Of a stretch of DNA of 64,000 bases, positions 9,836-64,000 are shown piece after piece. The DNA comes from Mobula hypostoma (taxonomy: Eukaryota): positions 112,780,001 to 112,844,000 of the forward strand of contig NC_086097.1 in assembly GCF_963921235.1 (NCBI RefSeq), read 5' to 3'. The notes below the pieces were generated by a model that had not been told where the DNA came from, made no database searches, and worked only from the letters and a program-made list of their open reading frames with translations. Positions within the stretch are counted from its first letter, which is position 1. The number at the start of each line of letters is the position of its first letter. A program made the translations under genes and the position numbers.

Positions 9836-12370
9836 AACCATAGAAACTACAGCACAGAAACAGGCCTTTTGGCCCTTCTTGGCTGTGCCGAACCATTTTC
9901 TGCCTAGTCCCACTGACCTGCACACGGACCATATCCCTCCATACACCTCCCATCCATGTATCTGTCCAATTTATTCTTAAATGTTAAAAAAGAACCCGCA
10001 TTTACCACCTCGTCTGGCAGCTCATTCCATACTCCCACCACTCTCTGTGTGAAGAAGCCCCCCCTAATGTTCCCTTAAAACTTTTCCCCCCTCACCCTTA
10101 ACCCATGTCCTCTGGTTTTTTTCTCCCCTTGCCTCAGTGGAAAAAGCCTGCTTGCATTCACTCTATCCATACCCATCATAATTTTATATACCTCTATCAA
10201 ATCTCCCCTCATTCTTCTATGCTCCAGAGAATAAAGTCCTAACCTATTCAACCTTTCTCTGTAACTGAGTTTCTCAAGTCCCGGCAACATCCTTGTAAAC
10301 CTTCTCTGCACTCTTTCAACCTTATTTATATCCTTCCTGTAATTTGGTGACCAAAACTGAACACAATACTCCAGATTCGGCCTCACCAATGCCTTATACA
10401 ACCTCATCATAACATTCCAGCTCTTATACTCAATACTTCGATTAATAAAGGCCAATGTACCAAAAGCTCTCTTTACGACCCTATCTACCTGTGACACCAA
10501 TTTTAGGGAATTTTGTATCTGTATTCCCAGATCCCTCTGTTCCACTGCACTCCTCAGTGCCTTACCATTAACCCTGTATGTTCTACATTGGTTTGTCCTT
10601 CCAACGTGCAATACCTCACACTTGTCAGTATTAAACTCCATCTGCCATTTTTCAGCCCATTTTTCCAGCTGGCCAAGTCCCTCTGCAGGCTCTGAAAACC
10701 TTCCTCACTGTCTACTACACCTCCAATCTTTGTATCATCAGCAAACTTGCTGATCCAATTTACCACGTTATCATCCAGATCATTGATATAGATGACAAAT
10801 AACAATGGACCCAGCATTGATCCCTGTGGTACATCACTAGTCACAGGCCTCCACTCAGAGAAGCAATTCTCTACCACTACTCTCTGGCTTCTTCCATCGA
10901 GCCAATGTCTAATCCAATTTACCACCTCTCCATGTATACCTAGTGACTGAATTTTCCTAACTAACCTCCCATGCGGGACCTTGTCAAAGGCCTAACTGAA
11001 GTCCATATAGACAATATCCACTGCCTTCCCTTCATCCACTTTCCTGGTAACCTCCTTGAAAAACTCCAACAGATTGGTCAAACATGACCATTTTGACATT
11101 TTCACAAAGCCATTTTGACTCTCCCTAATAAGCCCCTGTCTATCCAAATGCTTGTAGATTCTGTCTCTTAGTACTCCCTCCAATAACTTACCTACTACTG
11201 ACGTTAAACTCACCGACCTATAATTTCCCGGATTACTTTTCGATCCTTTTTTAAACAACGGAACAACATGAGCCACTCTCCAATCCTCCGGCACTTCACC
11301 CGTAGACAGCGACATTTTAAATATTTCTGCCAGGGCCCCCGCAATTTCAACACTAGTCTCCTTCAAGGTCCGAGGGAACACTCTGTCAGGTCCCGGGGAT
11401 TTATCTACTTTAATTTTTCTCAAGACAGCAAGCACCTCCACCTTTTCAATCTGTACAGTTTCCATGGTCTCACTACTTGATTCCCTCAATTCCATAGATT
11501 TCATGCCAGCTTCCTTAGTAAATACAGATGCAAAAAACGTATTTAAGATCTCCCCCATTTCCTTTGGTTCCGCACAAAGCCAACCACTCTGATCTTCAAG
11601 AGGACCAATTTTATCCCTTACAATCCTTTTGCTCTTAATATACTTGTAAAAGCTCTTTGGATTATCCTTCACTTTGACTGCCAAGGCAACCTCATTTCTT
11701 CTTTTTGCCCTCCTGATTTCTTTCTTAAGTATTTTCTTGCACTTCTTATACTCCTCAAGCACCTGATTTACCCCCTGTTCCCTATACATTTCATACAACT
11801 CCCTCTTCTTCTTCATCAGAGTTGCAATATCCCTTGAGAACCAAGGTTCCTTATTCCTATTCAATTTGCCTTTAATCCTGACAGGAACATACAAACTCTG
11901 TACTCTCAAAATTTCCCCTTTGAAGGCTTCCCACCTACCAATCACATCTTTGCCAGAGAACAACCTGTCCCAAACCATGCTTTTTAGATCCTTTCTCATT
12001 TCTACAAATTTGGCCTTCTTCCAGTTCAGAACCTCAACCCTAGGACCAGATCTATCCTTGTCCATGATCAAATAGAAACTAATGGTGTTATGATCACTGG
12101 AACCAAAGTGCTCCCCTACACAGACTTCTGTCACTTGCCCTAACTCGTTTCCTAACAGGAGATCCAATATTGCATCCCCTCTAGTTGGTCCCTCTATATA
12201 CTGATTTAGAAAACTTTCCTGAACACATTTTACAAACTCTAAACCATCTAGACCCCTAACAGTATGGGAGTCCCAATCAATGTATGGAAAATTAAAATGC
12301 CCTACCACCACAACTTTATGTTTCCTGCAGTTGCCTGCTATCTCTCTGCAGATTTGCTCTTCCAAGTCCA
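9836..12370 (-). mobile_element. Young 5'-truncated CR1 LINE (end of APE endonuclease + RT), with a premature stop and a frameshift
   Basis: ORFs 10992..12371 (GHFNFP, LDLLL, SDH; PGPD; NYRSVSLTS), 10554..10925 (PQGSMLGP, FADDTK) and 10075..10641. Confidence 0.92.
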
Positions 12371-12410
12371 AGATAGGTAGATAGGTATTCTATATATAGA
12401 ACAAGATGCT

Positions 12411-13567
12411 CATAGAAACATGGAAACATAGAAAATAGGTGCAGGAGTAGGCCATTCGGCTCTTCGAGCCTGCACCGCCTTTTATTATGATCATGGCTGA
12501 TCATCCAACTCAGACCCCTGGCCCAGCCTTCCCTCCATAACCCCTGATCCCCGTAGCCACAAGGGCCATATCTAACTCCCTCTTAAATATAGCCAATGAA
12601 CTGGCCTCAACTGTTTCCTGTGGCAGAGAATTCCACAGATTCACCACTCTCTGTGTGAAGAAGTTTTTCCTAATCTCGGTCCTAAAAGGCTTCCCCTTTA
12701 TCCTCAAACTGTGACCCCTCGTTCTGGACTTCCCCAACATCGGGAACAATTTTCCTGCATCTAGCCTGTCCAATCCCTTTAGGATTTTATATGTTTCAAT
12801 CAGATCCCCCCTCAATCTTCTAAATTCCAATGAGTACAAGCCCAGTTCATCCAGTCTTTCTTCATATGAAAGTCCTGCCATCCCAGGAATCAATCTGGTG
12901 AACCTTCTTTGTACTCCCTCTATGGCAAGGATGTCTTTCCTCAGATTAAGGGACCAAAACTGCACACAATACTCCAGGTGTGGTCTCACCAAGGCCTTGT
13001 ACAACTGCAGTAGTACCTCCCTGCTCCTGTACTCGAATCCTCTCGCTATAAATGCCAGCATACCATTCGCCTTTTTCACCGCCTGCTGTACCTGCATGCC
13101 CACTTTCAATGACTGGTGTATAATGACACCCAGGTCTCGTTGCACCTCCCCTTTTCCTAATCGGCCACCATTCAGATAATAATCTGTTTTCCTATTTTTG
13201 CCACCAAAGTGGATAACTTCACATTTATCCACATTAAATTGCATCTGCCATGAATTTGCCCACTCACCCAACCTATCCAAGTCGCTCTGCATCCTCTTAG
13301 CATCCTCCTCACAGCTAACGCTGCCACCCAGCTTCGTGTCATCCGCAAACTTGGAGATGCTGCATTTAATTCCCTCATCCAAGTCATTAATATATATTGT
13401 AAACAACTGGGGTCCCAGCACTGAGCCTTGCGGTACCCCACTAGTCACTGCCTGCCATTCTGAAAAGATCCCGTTTATTCCCACTCTTTGCTTCCTGTCT
13501 GCTAACCAATTCTCTATCCACATCAATACCTTACCCCCAATACCGTGTGCTTTAAGTTTGCACACTC
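12411..13567 (-). mobile_element. Young CR1 LINE 3' fragment with an uninterrupted 351-aa RT C-terminal ORF
   Basis: ORF 12510..13565 (GVPQGSVLGP, FADDTKLGG, VRPHLEYCVQFWS). The 3' end carries (CTATGTTT)-type tail repeats. Confidence 0.93.
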
Positions 13568-16845: not shown

Positions 16846-17230
16846 ACACATGTATTTTATGAGAAATTACCTTAAACTTATTAGAAAAGTAATTTTCCAA
16901 CTTCTAAGTTATCCTCATTGAAAACATAAACTCCTATAGTGATGTGATGCCAGGACACCAGCCATACAGTGATACTTTCCCCAAGTTTCTTTTCAGAATC
17001 TATACAGTCTCATTAAGCTACTAGATCGGGAGACATTACCAGTGAGCCAAATAAACTTCAGGCACAGAGCAGGATCAAAATTGTGAACATCATTATCCAA
17101 ATAATTGAATGGTATTAGCTTTAATTAAACTAAGAACTTTGAGCAACGTACTTACACGACCTTAACCTAAATTAAAATCAGATAAATTATTTAACGCAGT
17201 AGAAATGAATAAATGTCTGTGAATGCTTAC

Positions 17231-18180
17231 CTTTTTCACTGACACTTTCACTCTCAATTTCTACGTCATCACAGCTGGTATATTCTGGAGTAGATGCAAG
17301 CTCTTCCTCTGAGCTGCTCAACGAGACCTGCCGCATTTTACCTCCTTTCTTTGTTTTATGTGGCTTTGGTGGTGGTGGCCTCACTGATTCCGACTGATCT
17401 GAGCTGAGCGAGTCGTTTCGCAGCATGGTTTCCATCTTTTCCCGTTTAGTTTTCTTAACTGCAGAACTTGGATCCAAGTGTTGTTGTTTCCGCATTGAAT
17501 CAGAATGACGAACGTCACCCCTATCAAATGGAATTGGACTTCGCCTGGGTGTTGGTGGACTGTGATTTGGGGTCCTTTGCCAACTAGAACTAGGCCCTTG
17601 TAGGTCTTGAGTTCTCTCCATTGAGTAAGAACGCTGACTTTGCACAGGGACCCTGCGATCACATGCAGAACGTTGTCGTGACTGCCTTTCCATTCTATGC
17701 TTTGAAATTTGTACATCATCCATCTCTGTGTATGCCAAAGAAACATCACTGTGTCTTCGTTCATGACGTACCCGAGACATCTCAGCATGCATTCGCATTT
17801 GCTCCTCGTACGGTTGTGGTTTGACAGGATAACGTGCCAAATTTGGATCACTACGATAACGAGTCTGATACTCTCCCTCTCGTCTCTGTCGCTCATATTC
17901 ATCTCTACTTTGTGTATCAATATCCTCATCTACTAAATCTCGGAACTCTTGAGACCGCCTTAGACTTCTGCGTGTGGAGTCCCTGCTTTCTCTGTACTCA
18001 ATGTGTTCAGAGTCATCGTAAGCCCACGAGCCTCGCAACGATCGCTTGTCACGGTCTGCATATTCTGTCGGCGACCTCTGCATTGCACTTTCCAAAAGTG
18101 CATACTGTGATGGATCTGCTCTGTCGTCCTTCTGGTGGTATTTCCGATTGTGTTCCCTGGATGTTGATGGGCTCCTTTTC
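17231..18180 (-). CDS. RIMS2: RIMS2 internal coding exon (950 nt; region between the zinc finger and the PDZ domain)
   Basis: Translates as (R)KRSPSTSREHNRKY...YQTRYRSDPNLARYPVKPQPYEEQMRMHAEMSRVRHERRHSDVSL...MLRNDSLSSDQSESVRPPPPKPHKTKKGGKMRQVSLSSSEEELASTPEYTSCDDVEIESESVSEK(G), which I recognise as RIM2. Acceptor tttccttccAG|G at 18181/18180 (phase 2). Donor AAAG|GTAAGC at 17231/17230 (phase 1). Confidence 0.96.
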
Positions 18181-18572: not shown

Positions 18573-18631
18573 CTTTCCGTTTGCCATTGCACATCTGGGA
18601 GATAGAGGAAATTATATCCAGAAGAATGCAT
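18573..18631 (-). CDS. RIMS2: Candidate proximal alternative first exon of RIMS2 (MHSSGYNFLYLPDVQWQTE-R)
   Basis: ATG at 18631 with an upstream in-frame TAA, 19 codons + AG, donor AAG|GTAAAC in phase 2, 392 nt from the large exon's acceptor. G-runs follow the donor. No homology support. Confidence 0.38.
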
Positions 18632-28055: not shown

Positions 28056-28391
28056 GGCATATGTCAGTCACTATGCAAATTAAGAAAGCAGCACATTGGG
28101 AAAATGCTAAACTAATCCAGTAAAGTCATCACAGACTCATGAAGGAGAACAAATTTATTAGAGGTTCCTGAGGAGGTCTCGACCAGAGGCATAGAGGAGA
28201 ACCAGGAGATGCATTGCACTTGAATTTCCAGAAGACATTTGACTAAGTGTCTCACAGTAGCTTAAGTCACAAGATAAGAACACATTGTGTTGGAGATAAT
28301 ATATTGGCAATGGATAGAGGACTGGATAACAGGCAGGATGGATATAGAAGTCATTTCAGGCTGGCGACCTCTACTCTAACCATAGAAATCA

Positions 28392-29090
28392 GTCACCGAA
28401 AGTAAGCATGCAGGTACAGCAGGCAGTGAAGAAAGCTAATGGCATGTTGGCCTTCATAACAAGGGGAGTTGAGTATAGGAGCAAAGAGGTCCTTCTGCAG
28501 TTGTACAGGGCCCTGGTGAGACCACACCTGGACTATTGTGTACAGTTTTGGTCTCCAAATTTGAGGAAGGACATTCTAGCTATTGAGGGAGTGCAGCGTA
28601 GGATCACGAGGTTAATTCCCGGGATGGCGGGACTGTCATATGTTGAAAGATTGGAGCAACTGGGGTTGTATACGCTGGAATTTAGAAGGATGAGAGGGAA
28701 TCTGATTGAAATATATAAGATTATCAAGGGATTGGACACGCTAGAGGCAGGAAACATGTTCCCGATGTTGGGGGAGTCCAGAACCAGAGTCCACAGTTTA
28801 GGAATAAGGGGTAGACAATTTAGAACGGAGTTGAGGAAAAACTTTTTCACACAGAGGGTTGTGGTTCTGTGGAATGCTCTGCCTCAGAAGGCAGTGGAGG
28901 CCAATTCTCTGGATTTTTTCACGAAAGAGTTAGATAGAGCTCTTAAAGATAGCGGAGTGAAGGGATATGGGGAGAAGGCAGGAAAAGGGTACTGATTGTG
29001 GATGATCAGCCATGATCACAGTGGATGCTGGTGCTGTCTCAAAGGGCTGAATGGCCTACTCCTGCACCTATTGTCTATTGTCTATTGTCT
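28392..29090 (+). mobile_element. Young CR1 LINE 3' fragment, related to 12411-13567 and in opposite orientation
   Basis: ORF 28408..28995 (VQQAVKKANGMLAFI...LELYTLEFRR-like). (CTATTGT)n tail. AAATCA on both flanks. Confidence 0.9.
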
Positions 29091-58244: not shown

Positions 58245-59850
58245 TCAAAGCTCAAAGTTCAAAGTAAATTTAGAATCAAGTATGTGTATGTCACCAAATA
58301 CTACTCTGAGATTCATTTTCTTGTAAGCATTCACAATAGATACAATGAAACACAATAGAATCAATGTAAAAGTACACACAAAAATGGATAAACACTAATG
58401 TACAAAAGAGGACACACTGTACAAATAAAAAAACAAATAATTAATAAATAAATAATATTGAGAATATGAGTTGTTGCGTTCTTGAAAATAAACCCATAGT
58501 TTGTGATATCTCCTCTTATTTACCCCTTGAACATGACCCCACCAAGGAGCACCAGGCCATTGTCTCCCACACTGTCACCGACCTTATCAGCTCTGGGGAT
58601 CTCCCATCCACTGCTACCAACCTCATAGTTCCCACACCGCACACTTCCCATTTGTACCTCCTACCCAAGATCCACAAACCTGCCTGTCCAGATAGACCCA
58701 CTGTTTCAGCTTGCTTCTGCCCCACCGCATTTCTGCATGCCTCGACACTGTTTTATCCCCTCTTGTTCAATCCCTTCCCACCTATGTTCGTGACACTTCT
58801 CATGCTTTGGATTTTTTCAATGATTTCAAGTTCCCTGGTCCCCATCATCTTATTTTCATCATGGATGTCCAGTCCCTATATCCCTCCATCCCCCACCAGG
58901 AAGGTCTCAAACCTCTCTGCTTTTTTTTGGATTCCAGACCTAACCAATTCCCCTCTACCAGCACTCTCTTCTGTCTAGCGGAATTGGTCCTTACTCTTAA
59001 TAATTTCTCCTTTGGCTCCTCCCACTTCCTCCAAACTAAAGGTATAGCCATGGGCACCTGTATGGGCCCCAGCTATGCCTGCTTTTCTGTTGGCTTTGTG
59101 GAACAGTCCATGTTCCAAGCCTATACTGGTACACTCAGGTTGGAGGAACAATACCTTATATTCCACCTGGGTAGCCTCCAACCTGATGGCATGAACATTA
59201 ATTTCTCTGACTTCCGTTAATGCCCCTCCTCCCCTTCTTACCCCATCCCTGATTTTTATTTTATTTTATTATTTTTCTCTCTTTCCCTCTCACAATAACT
59301 CCTTGCCTGTTCTCCATTTTCCTCTGGTTCTCCCCTCCTCTTCTCTTTCTTCCAAGGCCTTCTGTCCCATGATACTCCCCCTTCTCCAGCCTTGTATCCC
59401 TTTTGCCAATCAACTTCCCAGCTCTTAGCTTCATCCCTCACCCTCCTGTCTTCTCCTATCATTTTGGATCTCCCCCTCCCCCTCCCACTTTCAAATCTCG
59501 TACTATCTCTTTTTTCCGTTAGTCCTGACAAAAGGTCTCGACCCGAAACGTCGACTGTACTTCTTCCTATAGATGCTGCCTGGCCTGCTGCCTTCCACCA
59601 GCGTTTTGTGTGTGTTGCCATAGTTTGTGGAATCAGTTCCGTGTTGAGGTGAGTGTGGGTTTCCACACTGGTTCAGAAGCCTGATGGTTGAAGGGTAATA
59701 ACTGTTTCTGAACCTGGTGGTGTAGGACCCAGGGATTCTGTATCTCCTTCCCAATGGCAGCATCAAGAAGAGAACATGGTTTGGATGGTGGGGGGATACT
59801 CTGATGACAGATGCTGTTTTCTTGTGGCAGTGCTCCTTGTAGATATGATC
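58245..59850 (-). mobile_element. Rex1/Babar-type LINE 3' fragment split by a Penelope-like insertion
   Basis: The 3' UTR at 58245-58505 continues at 59630-59850. Confidence 0.7.
58506..59617 (+). mobile_element. Internally deleted Penelope-like element with a 12-bp target-site duplication
   Basis: PLE RT motifs (LYLLPKIHKP; MDVQSLYPSIP; QTKGIAMGTCMGPSYA) are fused directly to TLRLEEQYLIFHLGSLQPDGMNINFSDFR. ccatagtttgtg occurs at 58494-58505 and 59618-59629. Confidence 0.9.
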
Positions 59851-60138: not shown

Positions 60139-60660
60139 TGTACCTAATAAAGTGGCCACTCAGTGTATGTCTGTGGTCTTCAGCTGCTGTAGCCCATTCA
60201 CTTCAAAGTTTGACATGTTATGCATTCAGAGATGCTCTTCTACACTGCACTGTTGTAACACATAGTTATTTAAGTTACTGTCACCTTCCCATCAGCTTAA
60301 CCAGTCTGGCCATTCTCCTCTGACCTCTCTCATTAACAAGGCAGATTTGCCCACAGAACTGCTGCTCACTGGATTTTTTTTTTCATTTTTCACAACATTC
60401 TCTGTAAACTCTAGAGACTGTTATGTGTGACAAACCCAGGACATCAGCAGTTTCTGAGATACTCAAACCACCCCATCTGGCACCAACAATCAAAGTCACT
60501 TAGATCACACTTCTTCCCCATTCTTAAGTTTGGCCTAAAAAACAACTGAGCCTCTTGATCATGTCTGCACGCTTTTATGCACTGAGTTGCTGCCACATGA
60601 TTGGCTGATTAGATATCTGCATTAATGAGCAGGTGTACCTAATAAAGTGGCCACTGAATA
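60139..60660 (-). mobile_element. Second copy of the Tc1-like non-autonomous element (outer left TIR missing)
   Basis: Collinear with 53947-54479. gtacctaataaagtggccact occurs at both ends. Confidence 0.8.
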
Positions 60661-61449
60661 TATTTGATTTCCTTACAAACAATTAAGGAAAAGCTTTTCA
60701 CAGTTTCAACCTCACTTTATCTTAGTTTGTTTGTGCAGCTACATTAATAATTTGTGGCATTTTGGACGTTACATCAGTTTACAAATTTCTCACATCAACC
60801 CTGACCTGGAAACTATAGGCCTCAATCTTATGGTTTATAAATAACCGTAGCAAATGTTGTCAAATTTAAAGGTTTGTCAAGGACATATTTTCTGTCTTTA
60901 CACATTAACCAGTTTGATCAATTTCATAAATAAATCCACCAGAATATACAGTATCTGTGCACAAACACATCAAAATTAAAAATATTTGCAATTGAAAACA
61001 TTGGAAAACATTGAAAGTTCCCTCCAAACACCCATTCTTTATCTGTATTTGTATCCAGCAGATTCTAATATATACTTCTCTGATTAAATAAATTAAAGCA
61101 GCGACTACCTCGTCAAATACTTTCATAACGTATTTCTTATAGACTGTTCTAAAATACATAAAACTGTAATTTAATAATTGGTTTATAAAATGTTAAAATG
61201 ATTATACAAGGAAAACCTTGCCATTTTTATTTATAAGATGAGAGACCCTCCAACAACCCTTGGACAGAAACTTTTAACAATGGAATTTTCCTACCTTTAG
61301 ATCTTTGATGGTCTCCCTCTTGCCTGCTTGCAAGTACGTTCTGTGTAATACTTTACCTGATACTATGGCAGAACTTACACAACCTATGCAATCCAACACC
61401 AGAAAAGTGATCAGTTCCTGAAACAACTAATTTGAAATGGGCCAAGTAC

Positions 61450-61517
61450 CTGCAGTCAGACGTATCTGTTTCCTCAATAGTTGGTAGCCTGCTAGTCGTA
61501 CCAGTAACCCTGAACAT
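61450..61517 (-). CDS. RIMS2: Candidate second alternative first coding exon of RIMS2 (MFRVTGTTSRLPTIEETDTSDC-R)
   Basis: ATG at 61517 with an upstream in-frame TAG, 22 codons + AG, donor CAG|GTACTT in phase 2. A second in-frame phase-2 donor (CAG|GTAAAG) lies at 61357/61356. The region is TE-free. Confidence 0.6.
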
Positions 61518-62499
61518 CCACACGCTATCCAAACAGCAGAGTGGGCAGAAGAACTACCCATCACACTAATTAATTACTTAGTTTCAAATGATGGCAGCAA
61601 TTTCTTCAAAACTTTAAAACACATGTCACCGGGATTCCAGGAAAGCTCTGTGTTTCTGCTTTGGTTTTCTGACAGTTAAAGTAGATTTCAAGATTTACGA
61701 GATCCATTGCCACTGGAAGTCTCCCTGCAGCAAAGAGGAGGAGGAGCACGAATTGTTGCCTGAGCAGTCAACTGCACCTGTCCAAGTCACTGTGCACTTT
61801 TCAAAAGCAACCCAGCATGATTATGTCTCAAAAAAATGTGCATTTTGTGGATTTTGGTACTTTTTAGTTTACGTGTAGTATTTTCCCTCAATATCAATTT
61901 CTTGAAAGATATACTATATACAATAGTATATAACAAAACAATAATACAAGACCAATATCAAAAATAAATACACCTACTTGAACAATTGAAATGAATATTA
62001 AGCATTAAGACTACCCTTTAAGAGAGTGCTGTATTTTCTATGTCACATGCCAAGGCCATACTATGTTACAGTTTGCAAACAATGAAATTAATCCTCTTTT
62101 TAAGAAAAGTTATACACTGTCTTCGCTTGCAATCATACCCTCAATACTGTAAGATCGAATTCTCACAGGAAAACAATAGTACTTCTGCAGATAAAATGCC
62201 AGCATAATTCAAACATCATCTGGTAGTTAAGATTGAACATTAAAATGGTAATGAGATCAAGACCTTTAAAATTTGTAATGAGCTCAATACAGATTTTAAA
62301 TTTATTGTTTTCAATTCCTACAGAGCCTTAGAGTATAATCTGATTAGTTCCTTTTATTTGTGTAAACGGTATTCTAACTTTTTAAATTTCTATCAATGCC
62401 ATTTTAATACATCAAATAAGGGTTTATTTTTCAGGGATGGGAAATTTGAAACGAGACTTATACTGTCTTCTGCAATTACATGAGAAGTGATTTACTCAC

Positions 62500-62624
62500 C
62501 CAAGGTTGCTTAGTGCTCGTTCAAAGAACTCATTTTGGAGAAGGATGTCATGTTGGTTTGAGAAAACATTATTTAAACTGGTTAAAACAGAACTGCAGAA
62601 CTGACGCAGTGCTTCAAACTGCAT
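62500..62624 (-). CDS. RIMS2: RIMS2 alternative first coding exon (RIM2-beta-type N-terminus)
   Basis: ATG at 62624 gives MQFEALRQFCSSVLTSLNNVFSNQHDILLQNEFFERALSNL+GG, then donor GG|GTGAGT. Phase 2 fits the 18180 acceptor. It closely resembles the mammalian RIM2-beta start MQFETLRQVCNSVLSHFHGVF...ILQNELF (recalled from memory). Confidence 0.88.
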
Positions 62625-63080
62625 TTTCAGCCTTTACCCCCATGTACTGTGAGGCCGTCTATCTCACTTGTAACATCAAATGCCAAAATGCCAATCACAT
62701 GCCTAAATCATCCTGACCTGTGTAAAAACTACGATCTGATGAACACCAGTCAATGGTTAATTGTTCAGACGCCACCCGCTAATTCATCCAGAGAGGCTAA
62801 GAATTTTTAACACCATTACTGACTGTAGCAATAGTGCTTTGCAGCAGTGAGGGCTCCCCATTCCCAGCTGCAGCGTCGAGCACTCACAGATTTCTACTAT
62901 CTGAATGCTTATTAAACAAACACAGGCAAGATGCTTTCATCAGGAATTCAAGCACATCTGACTTCCAACAACCAGGCTTCGCACGGAATCAGACCAAGGG
63001 AGGAGGCAAATGCAATGGAAAAGGAAAAGAACAGCCCGTACGTCTATACGTCTTTAAGGTACATCTCAAATGAAAAATAG
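62625..63080 (-). promoter_or_regulatory. Putative 5' UTR / internal promoter of the RIM2-beta-type transcript
   Basis: Unique, TE-free sequence directly upstream of the ATG at 62624. Position is the only evidence; no transcription start site is visible. Confidence 0.4.
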
Positions 63081-63087
63081 GCAAATA

Positions 63088-63107
63088 ACGGAGAGGGAGA
63101 GGGAGAG

Positions 63108-63142
<35 letters not shown>

Positions 63143-63495
63143 AAGAGAGAGAGACAGAGATAGAGAGAGAGAGAGAGGAGGGAGTGAGAGAGAGAGAGAG
63201 GAGAGAGAGGAGGAAGAGGGAGTGAGAGAGAGAGAGAGAAAGAGAGAGCAAGTGTGGGCATATATGTGTGTGAGAGAATGAGAGAGCAAGTGCGTATGTG
63301 AGACGGAGAGAGAGAGTGTGTGTGTGAGAGAATATGAGGGTGAGTGTCTGCGTGAAAGAGAGAGAAAGAGAGCATGTGTGTGAGACAGAGAGAGAGAATG
63401 TGTGCGAGAGAGAATGAGAGAGTGTGTGCTTGAGAGAGAATGTGTGTGTGCAAGAGAACGTGTGTGCGAGAGAATGTGTGTGAGAGAATGAAAGA

Positions 63496-63526
<31 letters not shown>

Positions 63527-64000
63527 GGAGAATGAAAGAGTGTGTGTGTGAGAGACAGAGATAGTGTGTGTGTGAGACAGAGAGAGAGTGTGTGTGTGTG
63601 TGAGAGGGAGAAAATGTGTGTGTGAGAAAGTGAGTGTGTATGTGAGAGAAAGAATGAGAGTGAGTGCGTGTGTGTGCATCTGAGAGAGTGAGTGTGTGTA
63701 TGTGAGACAGAGAGTGAGAATGTGTGTGTGAGAGAATGAGAGAGTGAGAGTGTGTGCGAGAGAATGTGTGTGTGAGAGAAAGAAAGAGAAAGTGTGTGTG
63801 TGTGTGAGAGAGGGAGAAAGTGTGTGTGAGAGAGTGTGTGTATGAGAGAGAGAATGTGTGTGTGAGAGAGTGAGTGGGTATGTGAGAGAAATAATGAGAG
63901 TGAGTGCTTGTGTGTGCATGTGAGAGAGTGAGAGTGTGTATATGAGACAGAGAGTGAGAATGTGTGTATGAGAAAATGAGAGAGTGAGTGTGTATGGGAG
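63088..64000. repeat. (GA)n/(GT)n compound low-complexity array, running off the window end
   Basis: Mixed GA/GT tracts. A ~110-bp block at ~63640-63750 recurs at ~63880-63990. Confidence 0.95.

Follow-up and report, generated by a model that had tools for sequence, protein, structure and literature searches.

A candidate alternative 5' coding exon of RIMS2 shared by a ray and a shark, with a predicted phosphatase-docking leader

The RIMS2 gene of Mobula hypostoma probably contains an old alternative 5' coding exon, present in a ray and in a shark, which would be transcribed from an internal promoter of its own and would encode a leader peptide with a predicted phosphatase-docking motif. Alternative first exons are common. 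The candidate exon, in its short form ending at position 61450 of the 64,000-nt stretch of DNA analyzed here (the window), is very likely real. The sequence anatomy of the exon, its orthology, its join in one shark gene model and its motif match were established here; expression in this ray, the promoter, the start of translation and B56 binding are inferred.

The RIMS2 intron and its leaders

The window lies inside RIMS2, which runs on the minus strand, and it includes one large exon shared by all leaders, two other leader exons and a block of single-copy DNA, as follows.

17229..18180, minus strand: shared large RIMS2 exon, where all leaders join; its acceptor at 18180 takes phase 2
18573..18631, minus strand: third leader exon; ATG at 18631, 19 codons plus 2 nt, phase-2 donor
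60640..63090, no strand: single-copy block with the beta and candidate exons, each of them at a local rise in G+C
62500..62624, minus strand: RIM2-beta-type first coding exon; ATG at 62624, 41 codons plus 2 nt, phase-2 donor

When translated, 18180-17229 agrees with RIMS2 of both Mobula hypostoma and M. birostris at 100% identity. The window does not include the last alpha exon (best score 21 of 148 in a six-frame scan), which would lie upstream of it. The beta exon has 93% identity over 42 residues to a skate leader (P0044), and the beta leader was also found in a catshark (P0069) and an eel (P0183). The candidate exon is located between the beta exon (62624) and the acceptor at 18180 and is not RIM2-beta itself, the leader of which maps to 62624-62500. 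The sequence-only reading had placed it about 1 kb below the beta exon, in agreement with the 983 nt that separate the beta donor (after 62500) from the candidate ATG. The same reading described a block of about 2.4 kb free of transposable elements, and the corresponding region (~60640-63090) is indeed single-copy in three related runs, with a depth of ~4-31 vs >100,000 in the flanking repeats. The G+C content rises locally at the beta exon and at the candidate exon (0.43-0.47, vs 0.26-0.39 in the other bins). The related sequencing runs compared (4 of the 12 listed) consist of contigs only.

A long and degenerate GA/GT simple repeat (63091-64000) abuts the single-copy block from above. Long open stretches at 10078-13565, 28348-28992 and 58448-59217, on both strands and within introns, resemble pieces of retrotransposon reverse transcriptase. 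One of the runs, X1, which is RNA only by guess, has a single contig (62441-62999) identical to the window, comprising the beta exon, ~375 nt above the beta ATG and 59 nt beyond the beta donor. X1 has no contig over the candidate exon, which speaks neither for nor against it. The protein atlas contains one RIMS2 cluster at 0.76, considered here as a lead only.

The third leader exon is found 392 nt above the acceptor at 18180. Leaders annotated in two species of bamboo shark match it, and one of them, that of isoform X2 (P0113), is identical to it at 15 of 20 residues. A parrot model (P0174) has a leader of equal length with a five-residue core in common, a weak match (E = 0.015); judged by these similarities, the third leader may be conserved from sharks to birds. 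With this leader at 18631 added, there seem to be at least three internal leaders in the intron that are joined to a single acceptor.

The candidate exon and its shark ortholog

The elements of the candidate exon, as read on the minus strand from its ATG, are given below.

61450..61517, minus strand: candidate exon, coding part; ATG, 22 codons plus 2 nt (an Arg is completed at the join), ending at donor 1
61444..61449, minus strand: intronic hexamer of donor 1; phase 2, the same donor as in the horn shark model
61357..61449, minus strand: in-frame extension of 31 codons between the two donors; its coding use is unsupported
61351..61356, minus strand: intronic hexamer of donor 2; phase 2, overlapping the TAA that closes the unspliced frame

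The candidate ATG (61517-61515) opens a frame of 54 codons, which is closed by TAA at 61355-61353. Donor 1 (CAG/GTACTT, last exon base 61450) leaves 68 coding nt and donor 2 (CAG/GTAAAG, last exon base 61357) leaves 161 nt, both in phase 2; each of them agrees with the consensus at 7 of 9 positions, the best values among the 14 GT sites in the frame. An ATG at 61517 leading to two in-frame phase-2 donors (61450 and 61357) was thus correctly recognized from the letters, and the phases match the acceptor at 18180. The in-frame stop claimed upstream of the ATG is present in the window (TAG, 61556-61554), whereas all three related runs have CAG at this place; a second upstream in-frame stop is found four codons above the TAG. 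The 44-kb intron has 19 combinations of an ATG, an open frame and a phase-2 donor that agrees with the consensus at 7 or more of its 9 positions, so that this pattern alone amounts to no more than chance, and the evidence beyond chance comes from homology with a leader of the horn shark.

The RIMS2 isoform X1 of the horn shark, Heterodontus francisci (XP_067888409.1, P0111), starts with an orthologous leader of the same length, identical at 17 of 23 residues, which begins at the same Met and meets the shared exon precisely where donor 61450 would place the join. When this leader is compared with the window in all six frames, the top score is 74, at 61517, and the next is 31; the tblastn match (E=0.002) spans the ATG to donor 1. 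The splice of a 22-aa leader from 61450 to the shared exon, as the sequence-only reading proposed it, is therefore the same join that a RefSeq model has, this being one computed gene model in one species. The Pfam domains listed for XP_067888409.1 are PDZ and C2 only, without PF02318 and PF22601, and a described function for this protein was not found. Rays and sharks diverged long ago, and an exon shared by both is consequently old.

The frequency of the leaders was surveyed in 172 shark and ray RIMS2 proteins from 19 named species, comprising the best 120 of 8000 scored hits to the shared exon and 52 further cluster members. The sequence before the shared exon is of the alpha type in 145 of them, beta in 5 (from 2 of the 19 named species), the 20-residue third leader in 2, the candidate leader in 1, and two single other forms, while the start of the shared exon is missing in the remaining 17. 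Rare annotation is thus usual for RIMS2 leaders (beta 5/172, third leader 2/172, candidate 1/172). The candidate leader is found in none of the 24 Mobula proteins of the survey. The two single forms are a catshark model (P0068), which has a 9-residue leader before the shared exon, with no convincing match in the window, and a stingray model (P0029), in which the end of the alpha exon is altered before the shared exon.

A tetrapod ortholog was not found among 145 representatives at 50% identity that were retrieved with the shared exon, only 6 of which contain the start of this exon; with the same 6 informative, none of the 145 has a leader of the kind that the sequence-only reading suggested for a mammalian RIMS2 isoform. 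The protein search with residues 1-40 of P0111, which is too insensitive for tetrapods, returned P0111 as the sole candidate, and a search for a PDB sequence match gave none. The human cDNA FLJ51805, labelled RIMS2 in PMC2780955, was considered as a counterpart and rejected, because the supplement of that paper maps it to chr6, while RIM1 is located on chromosome 6 and RIM2 on chromosome 8 (PMC10169678). One RefSeq model includes the exon, and a published description of it was not found in a search of mainly open-access papers.

The related runs add a closer comparison, in which the X2 contig over this region has 44 differences, 37 of them listed, X4 and X5 have rows only where X2 also differs, and some indels are not shown. 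Across the 68 coding nt, three substitutions are listed in these runs, all of them non-synonymous, changing residues 8, 9 and 10, at a rate equal to the background (3 seen, 3.05 expected); the DNA is hence without the classic coding signature at such a distance. The ray and the horn shark differ at six residues (4, 5, 6, 8, 18 and 22).

Start, splicing and other readings of the exon

The most likely reading is that an internal promoter just above 61517, ~1 kb below the RIM2-beta promoter, would start a transcript in the ray, that this transcript would be spliced from the donor at 61450 to the acceptor at 18180, and that its translation would begin at ATG 61517. The context of this ATG is weak, with T at -3 and at +4, and two further elements are found directly above it.

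61559..61561, minus strand: ATG 44 nt upstream of the candidate start, out of frame and with a strong context; its frame would overlap that start if transcripts begin above it
61525..61554, minus strand: candidate acceptor with pyrimidine tract and YAG; an exon entered here would begin at 61524 and form a symmetric 75-nt cassette of phase 2-2

After splicing, the frame opened by ATG 61561 would run for 110 codons, and if the transcript includes this ATG, it could damp translation from the candidate start. Both the upstream ATG and the weak start context become irrelevant if the exon is real but internal, that is, a 75-nt phase 2-2 cassette between the acceptor at 61525/61524 and the donor at 61450, which would follow either a non-coding 5' exon or one of the alpha and beta exons; after alpha or beta it would insert 25 residues with the motif into longer isoforms. 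The YAG of such a cassette lies 7 nt above the candidate ATG, its pyrimidine tract equals that of the true acceptor at 18180 (fraction 0.71), its length is a multiple of three and it is entered in phase 2. However, this pyrimidine fraction falls in the top 7% of 1437 intronic YAG sites, so about 7% of these sites are equally good; the shark model begins at the Met, the peptide occurs inside none of the 145 alpha-type and none of the 5 beta-type joins of the survey, and the G+C content is raised for ~300 nt above the ATG, as it is likewise around the beta exon. With these observations on the two sides, an internal cassette is considered unlikely.

An equally doubtful reading concerns the second donor, by which one promoter would give two leaders, of 23 and 54 residues, through the use of both donors. 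Donor 2 equals donor 1 in its consensus match and is in phase, and the 93-nt extension between them has none of the listed X2 substitutions, vs 4.2 expected (nominal P 0.015), a zero that depends on the differences listed, with some indels not shown; the nearest listed changes in relatives past donor 2 are at 61350 and 61348, that is, at +7 and +9. On the other side, chance alone leaves 31 successive codons open in ~12% of cases, and the extension is absent from all 172 shark and ray proteins. The direct protein search with the 53-aa frame gave two candidates, neither of which was scored, in a search of longer proteins only, and the 54-residue frame has no occurrence in the protein collection. 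The 53-aa form ending at donor 61357, which the sequence-only reading had put beside the short one, is not supported, its DNA conservation being weak, and use of donor 61357 for protein is improbable. The proposal of tandem leaders with distinct N-termini is thus supported for the 22-aa form, with the third leader at 18631 in addition, and is not supported for the 53-aa form.

The least probable reading is a conserved non-coding element (an enhancer or a splicing regulator of the beta promoter), at which the shark model would be a product of prediction and the motif a coincidence. It draws on the coding changes, all of them non-synonymous, and on 61351-61488, the longest unchanged X2 stretch (138 nt with zero of the listed X2 substitutions vs ~6 expected), which reaches from the motif over donor 1 and the extension to donor 2 and so crosses donor 1 into the intron. 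On the other side, that stretch is weak once the search is allowed for (P ~0.08), and the residue changes between ray and shark leave the motif intact, with an acid at its position 8 in both. A model arrived at by chance is also unlikely to have hit on the ortholog of this site, one of 19 such patterns in the ray's intron, and to agree with it in start, length and donor phase. Neither an Rfam match nor a stable fold (z = +1.69) was obtained for the unchanged stretch.

The predicted docking motif and its meaning

The alternative first exon with its own promoter, which is the preferred reading, would encode a leader with the following element.

61461..61487, minus strand: predicted LxxIxE PP2A-B56 docking-type motif; codons 11-19, with Thr, Asp and Thr at motif positions 7-9

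The motif LxxIxE is a docking motif for PP2A-B56, which is strengthened where positions 2, 7, 8 and 9 are acidic or phosphorylated, and its score N counts acidic or Ser/Thr residues minus basic ones at these four positions, with the best consensus at N>=1 (PMC5586252). In the candidate leader, Leu, Ile and Glu at motif positions 1, 4 and 6 are residues 11, 14 and 16, and by the rule of PMC5586252 the leaders of the ray and the horn shark both have N = 3, from one acidic residue and two Thr. The horn shark protein keeps the strict motif, all six of its differences from the ray being outside motif positions 1-6; the acid at position 8 is kept between the two, and three close relatives have no change in the motif among the differences listed. 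Taken together, the six differences between ray and shark and the three listed substitutions all lie outside residues 11-16 (chance 0.03). The strict motif occurs in 1 of the 916 ATG-started open 22-mers of the window, which is the candidate leader, in 1 of the 172 shark and ray proteins, which is its horn shark ortholog, the other 171 being without it, and in 0.3% of peptide shuffles. These P values are post hoc, since the motif was noticed after the alignment had been seen.

Being free, polar and N-terminal, the leader is likely disordered. Docking of PP2A-B56 by this leader, as predicted from its residues, is put forward tentatively. Among the rows listed in the B56 motif table of PMC5586252, canonical RIMS2 appears only with another, low-scoring site. 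A published link between RIMS2 and LxxIxE was not found, nor was the motif with its leading Arg, in a search of mainly open-access papers.

RIM2-beta is one of the closest known forms: it uses the same intron, acceptor and phase as the candidate exon, and differs in having an unrelated 42-residue leader without the strict LxxIxE motif (P0044). Liprin-alpha, an active-zone scaffold that binds RIM, is a precedent for the motif. It has an N-terminal B56-binding motif for which binding has been demonstrated (PMC8044993, PMC10970375), of the form L/M-x-x-I-x-E near the N-terminus and with Pro-Thr at positions 2-3 as in the candidate leader; binding to B56 is shown in liprin-alpha, whereas here it is predicted from sequence and on an optional exon. 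The inhibitor peptide of Kruse et al. 2020 (PMC7327492) has the same first four motif residues and Glu at position 6; however, this high-affinity peptide has three Glu at positions 7-9, where the candidate leader has Thr, Asp and Thr, and because of this difference the affinity of the leader is probably below that of the peptide, unless it is phosphorylated. The review PMC10169678 describes RIM2-beta as being without the alpha-helix and the zinc finger and names three RIM2 promoters, alpha, beta and gamma.

Under the preferred reading, the product of the candidate exon would resemble RIM2-beta in being without the Rab3-binding helix and the Munc13-binding zinc finger and in keeping the PDZ and C2 domains. 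The binding of Rab3 and Munc13 and the contacts with calcium channels and scaffold are established roles of the RIM domains. The calcium-channel and scaffold contacts would accordingly be kept, Rab3 and Munc13 binding would be lost, and a B56 docking site would be gained, through which the 23-residue leader, with its predicted B56 motif, would recruit PP2A-B56 to the RIM scaffold. As a rather speculative proposal, this would be an undescribed RIM2 isoform, one that brings PP2A-B56 to the release site and has no part in Rab3/Munc13 priming, from an intron with at least three internal leaders and one acceptor.

On present evidence, the reach of the finding is confined to sharks and rays. A further old leader of RIMS2 would mean an isoform that alpha-, beta- and gamma-specific primers or antibodies may miss or confuse with beta, and if the exon is also present in tetrapods, it would be a candidate source of those forms of RIM2 that lack the Munc13-binding head. 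Proteins of the active zone carry heavy phosphorylation, and the targeting of phosphatases to them is an open question. If true, an optional B56 docking tag on RIM2 would offer a precise handle on it, testable by one peptide-binding assay, and the choice of promoter would then switch the RIM2 scaffold from priming to phosphatase targeting.
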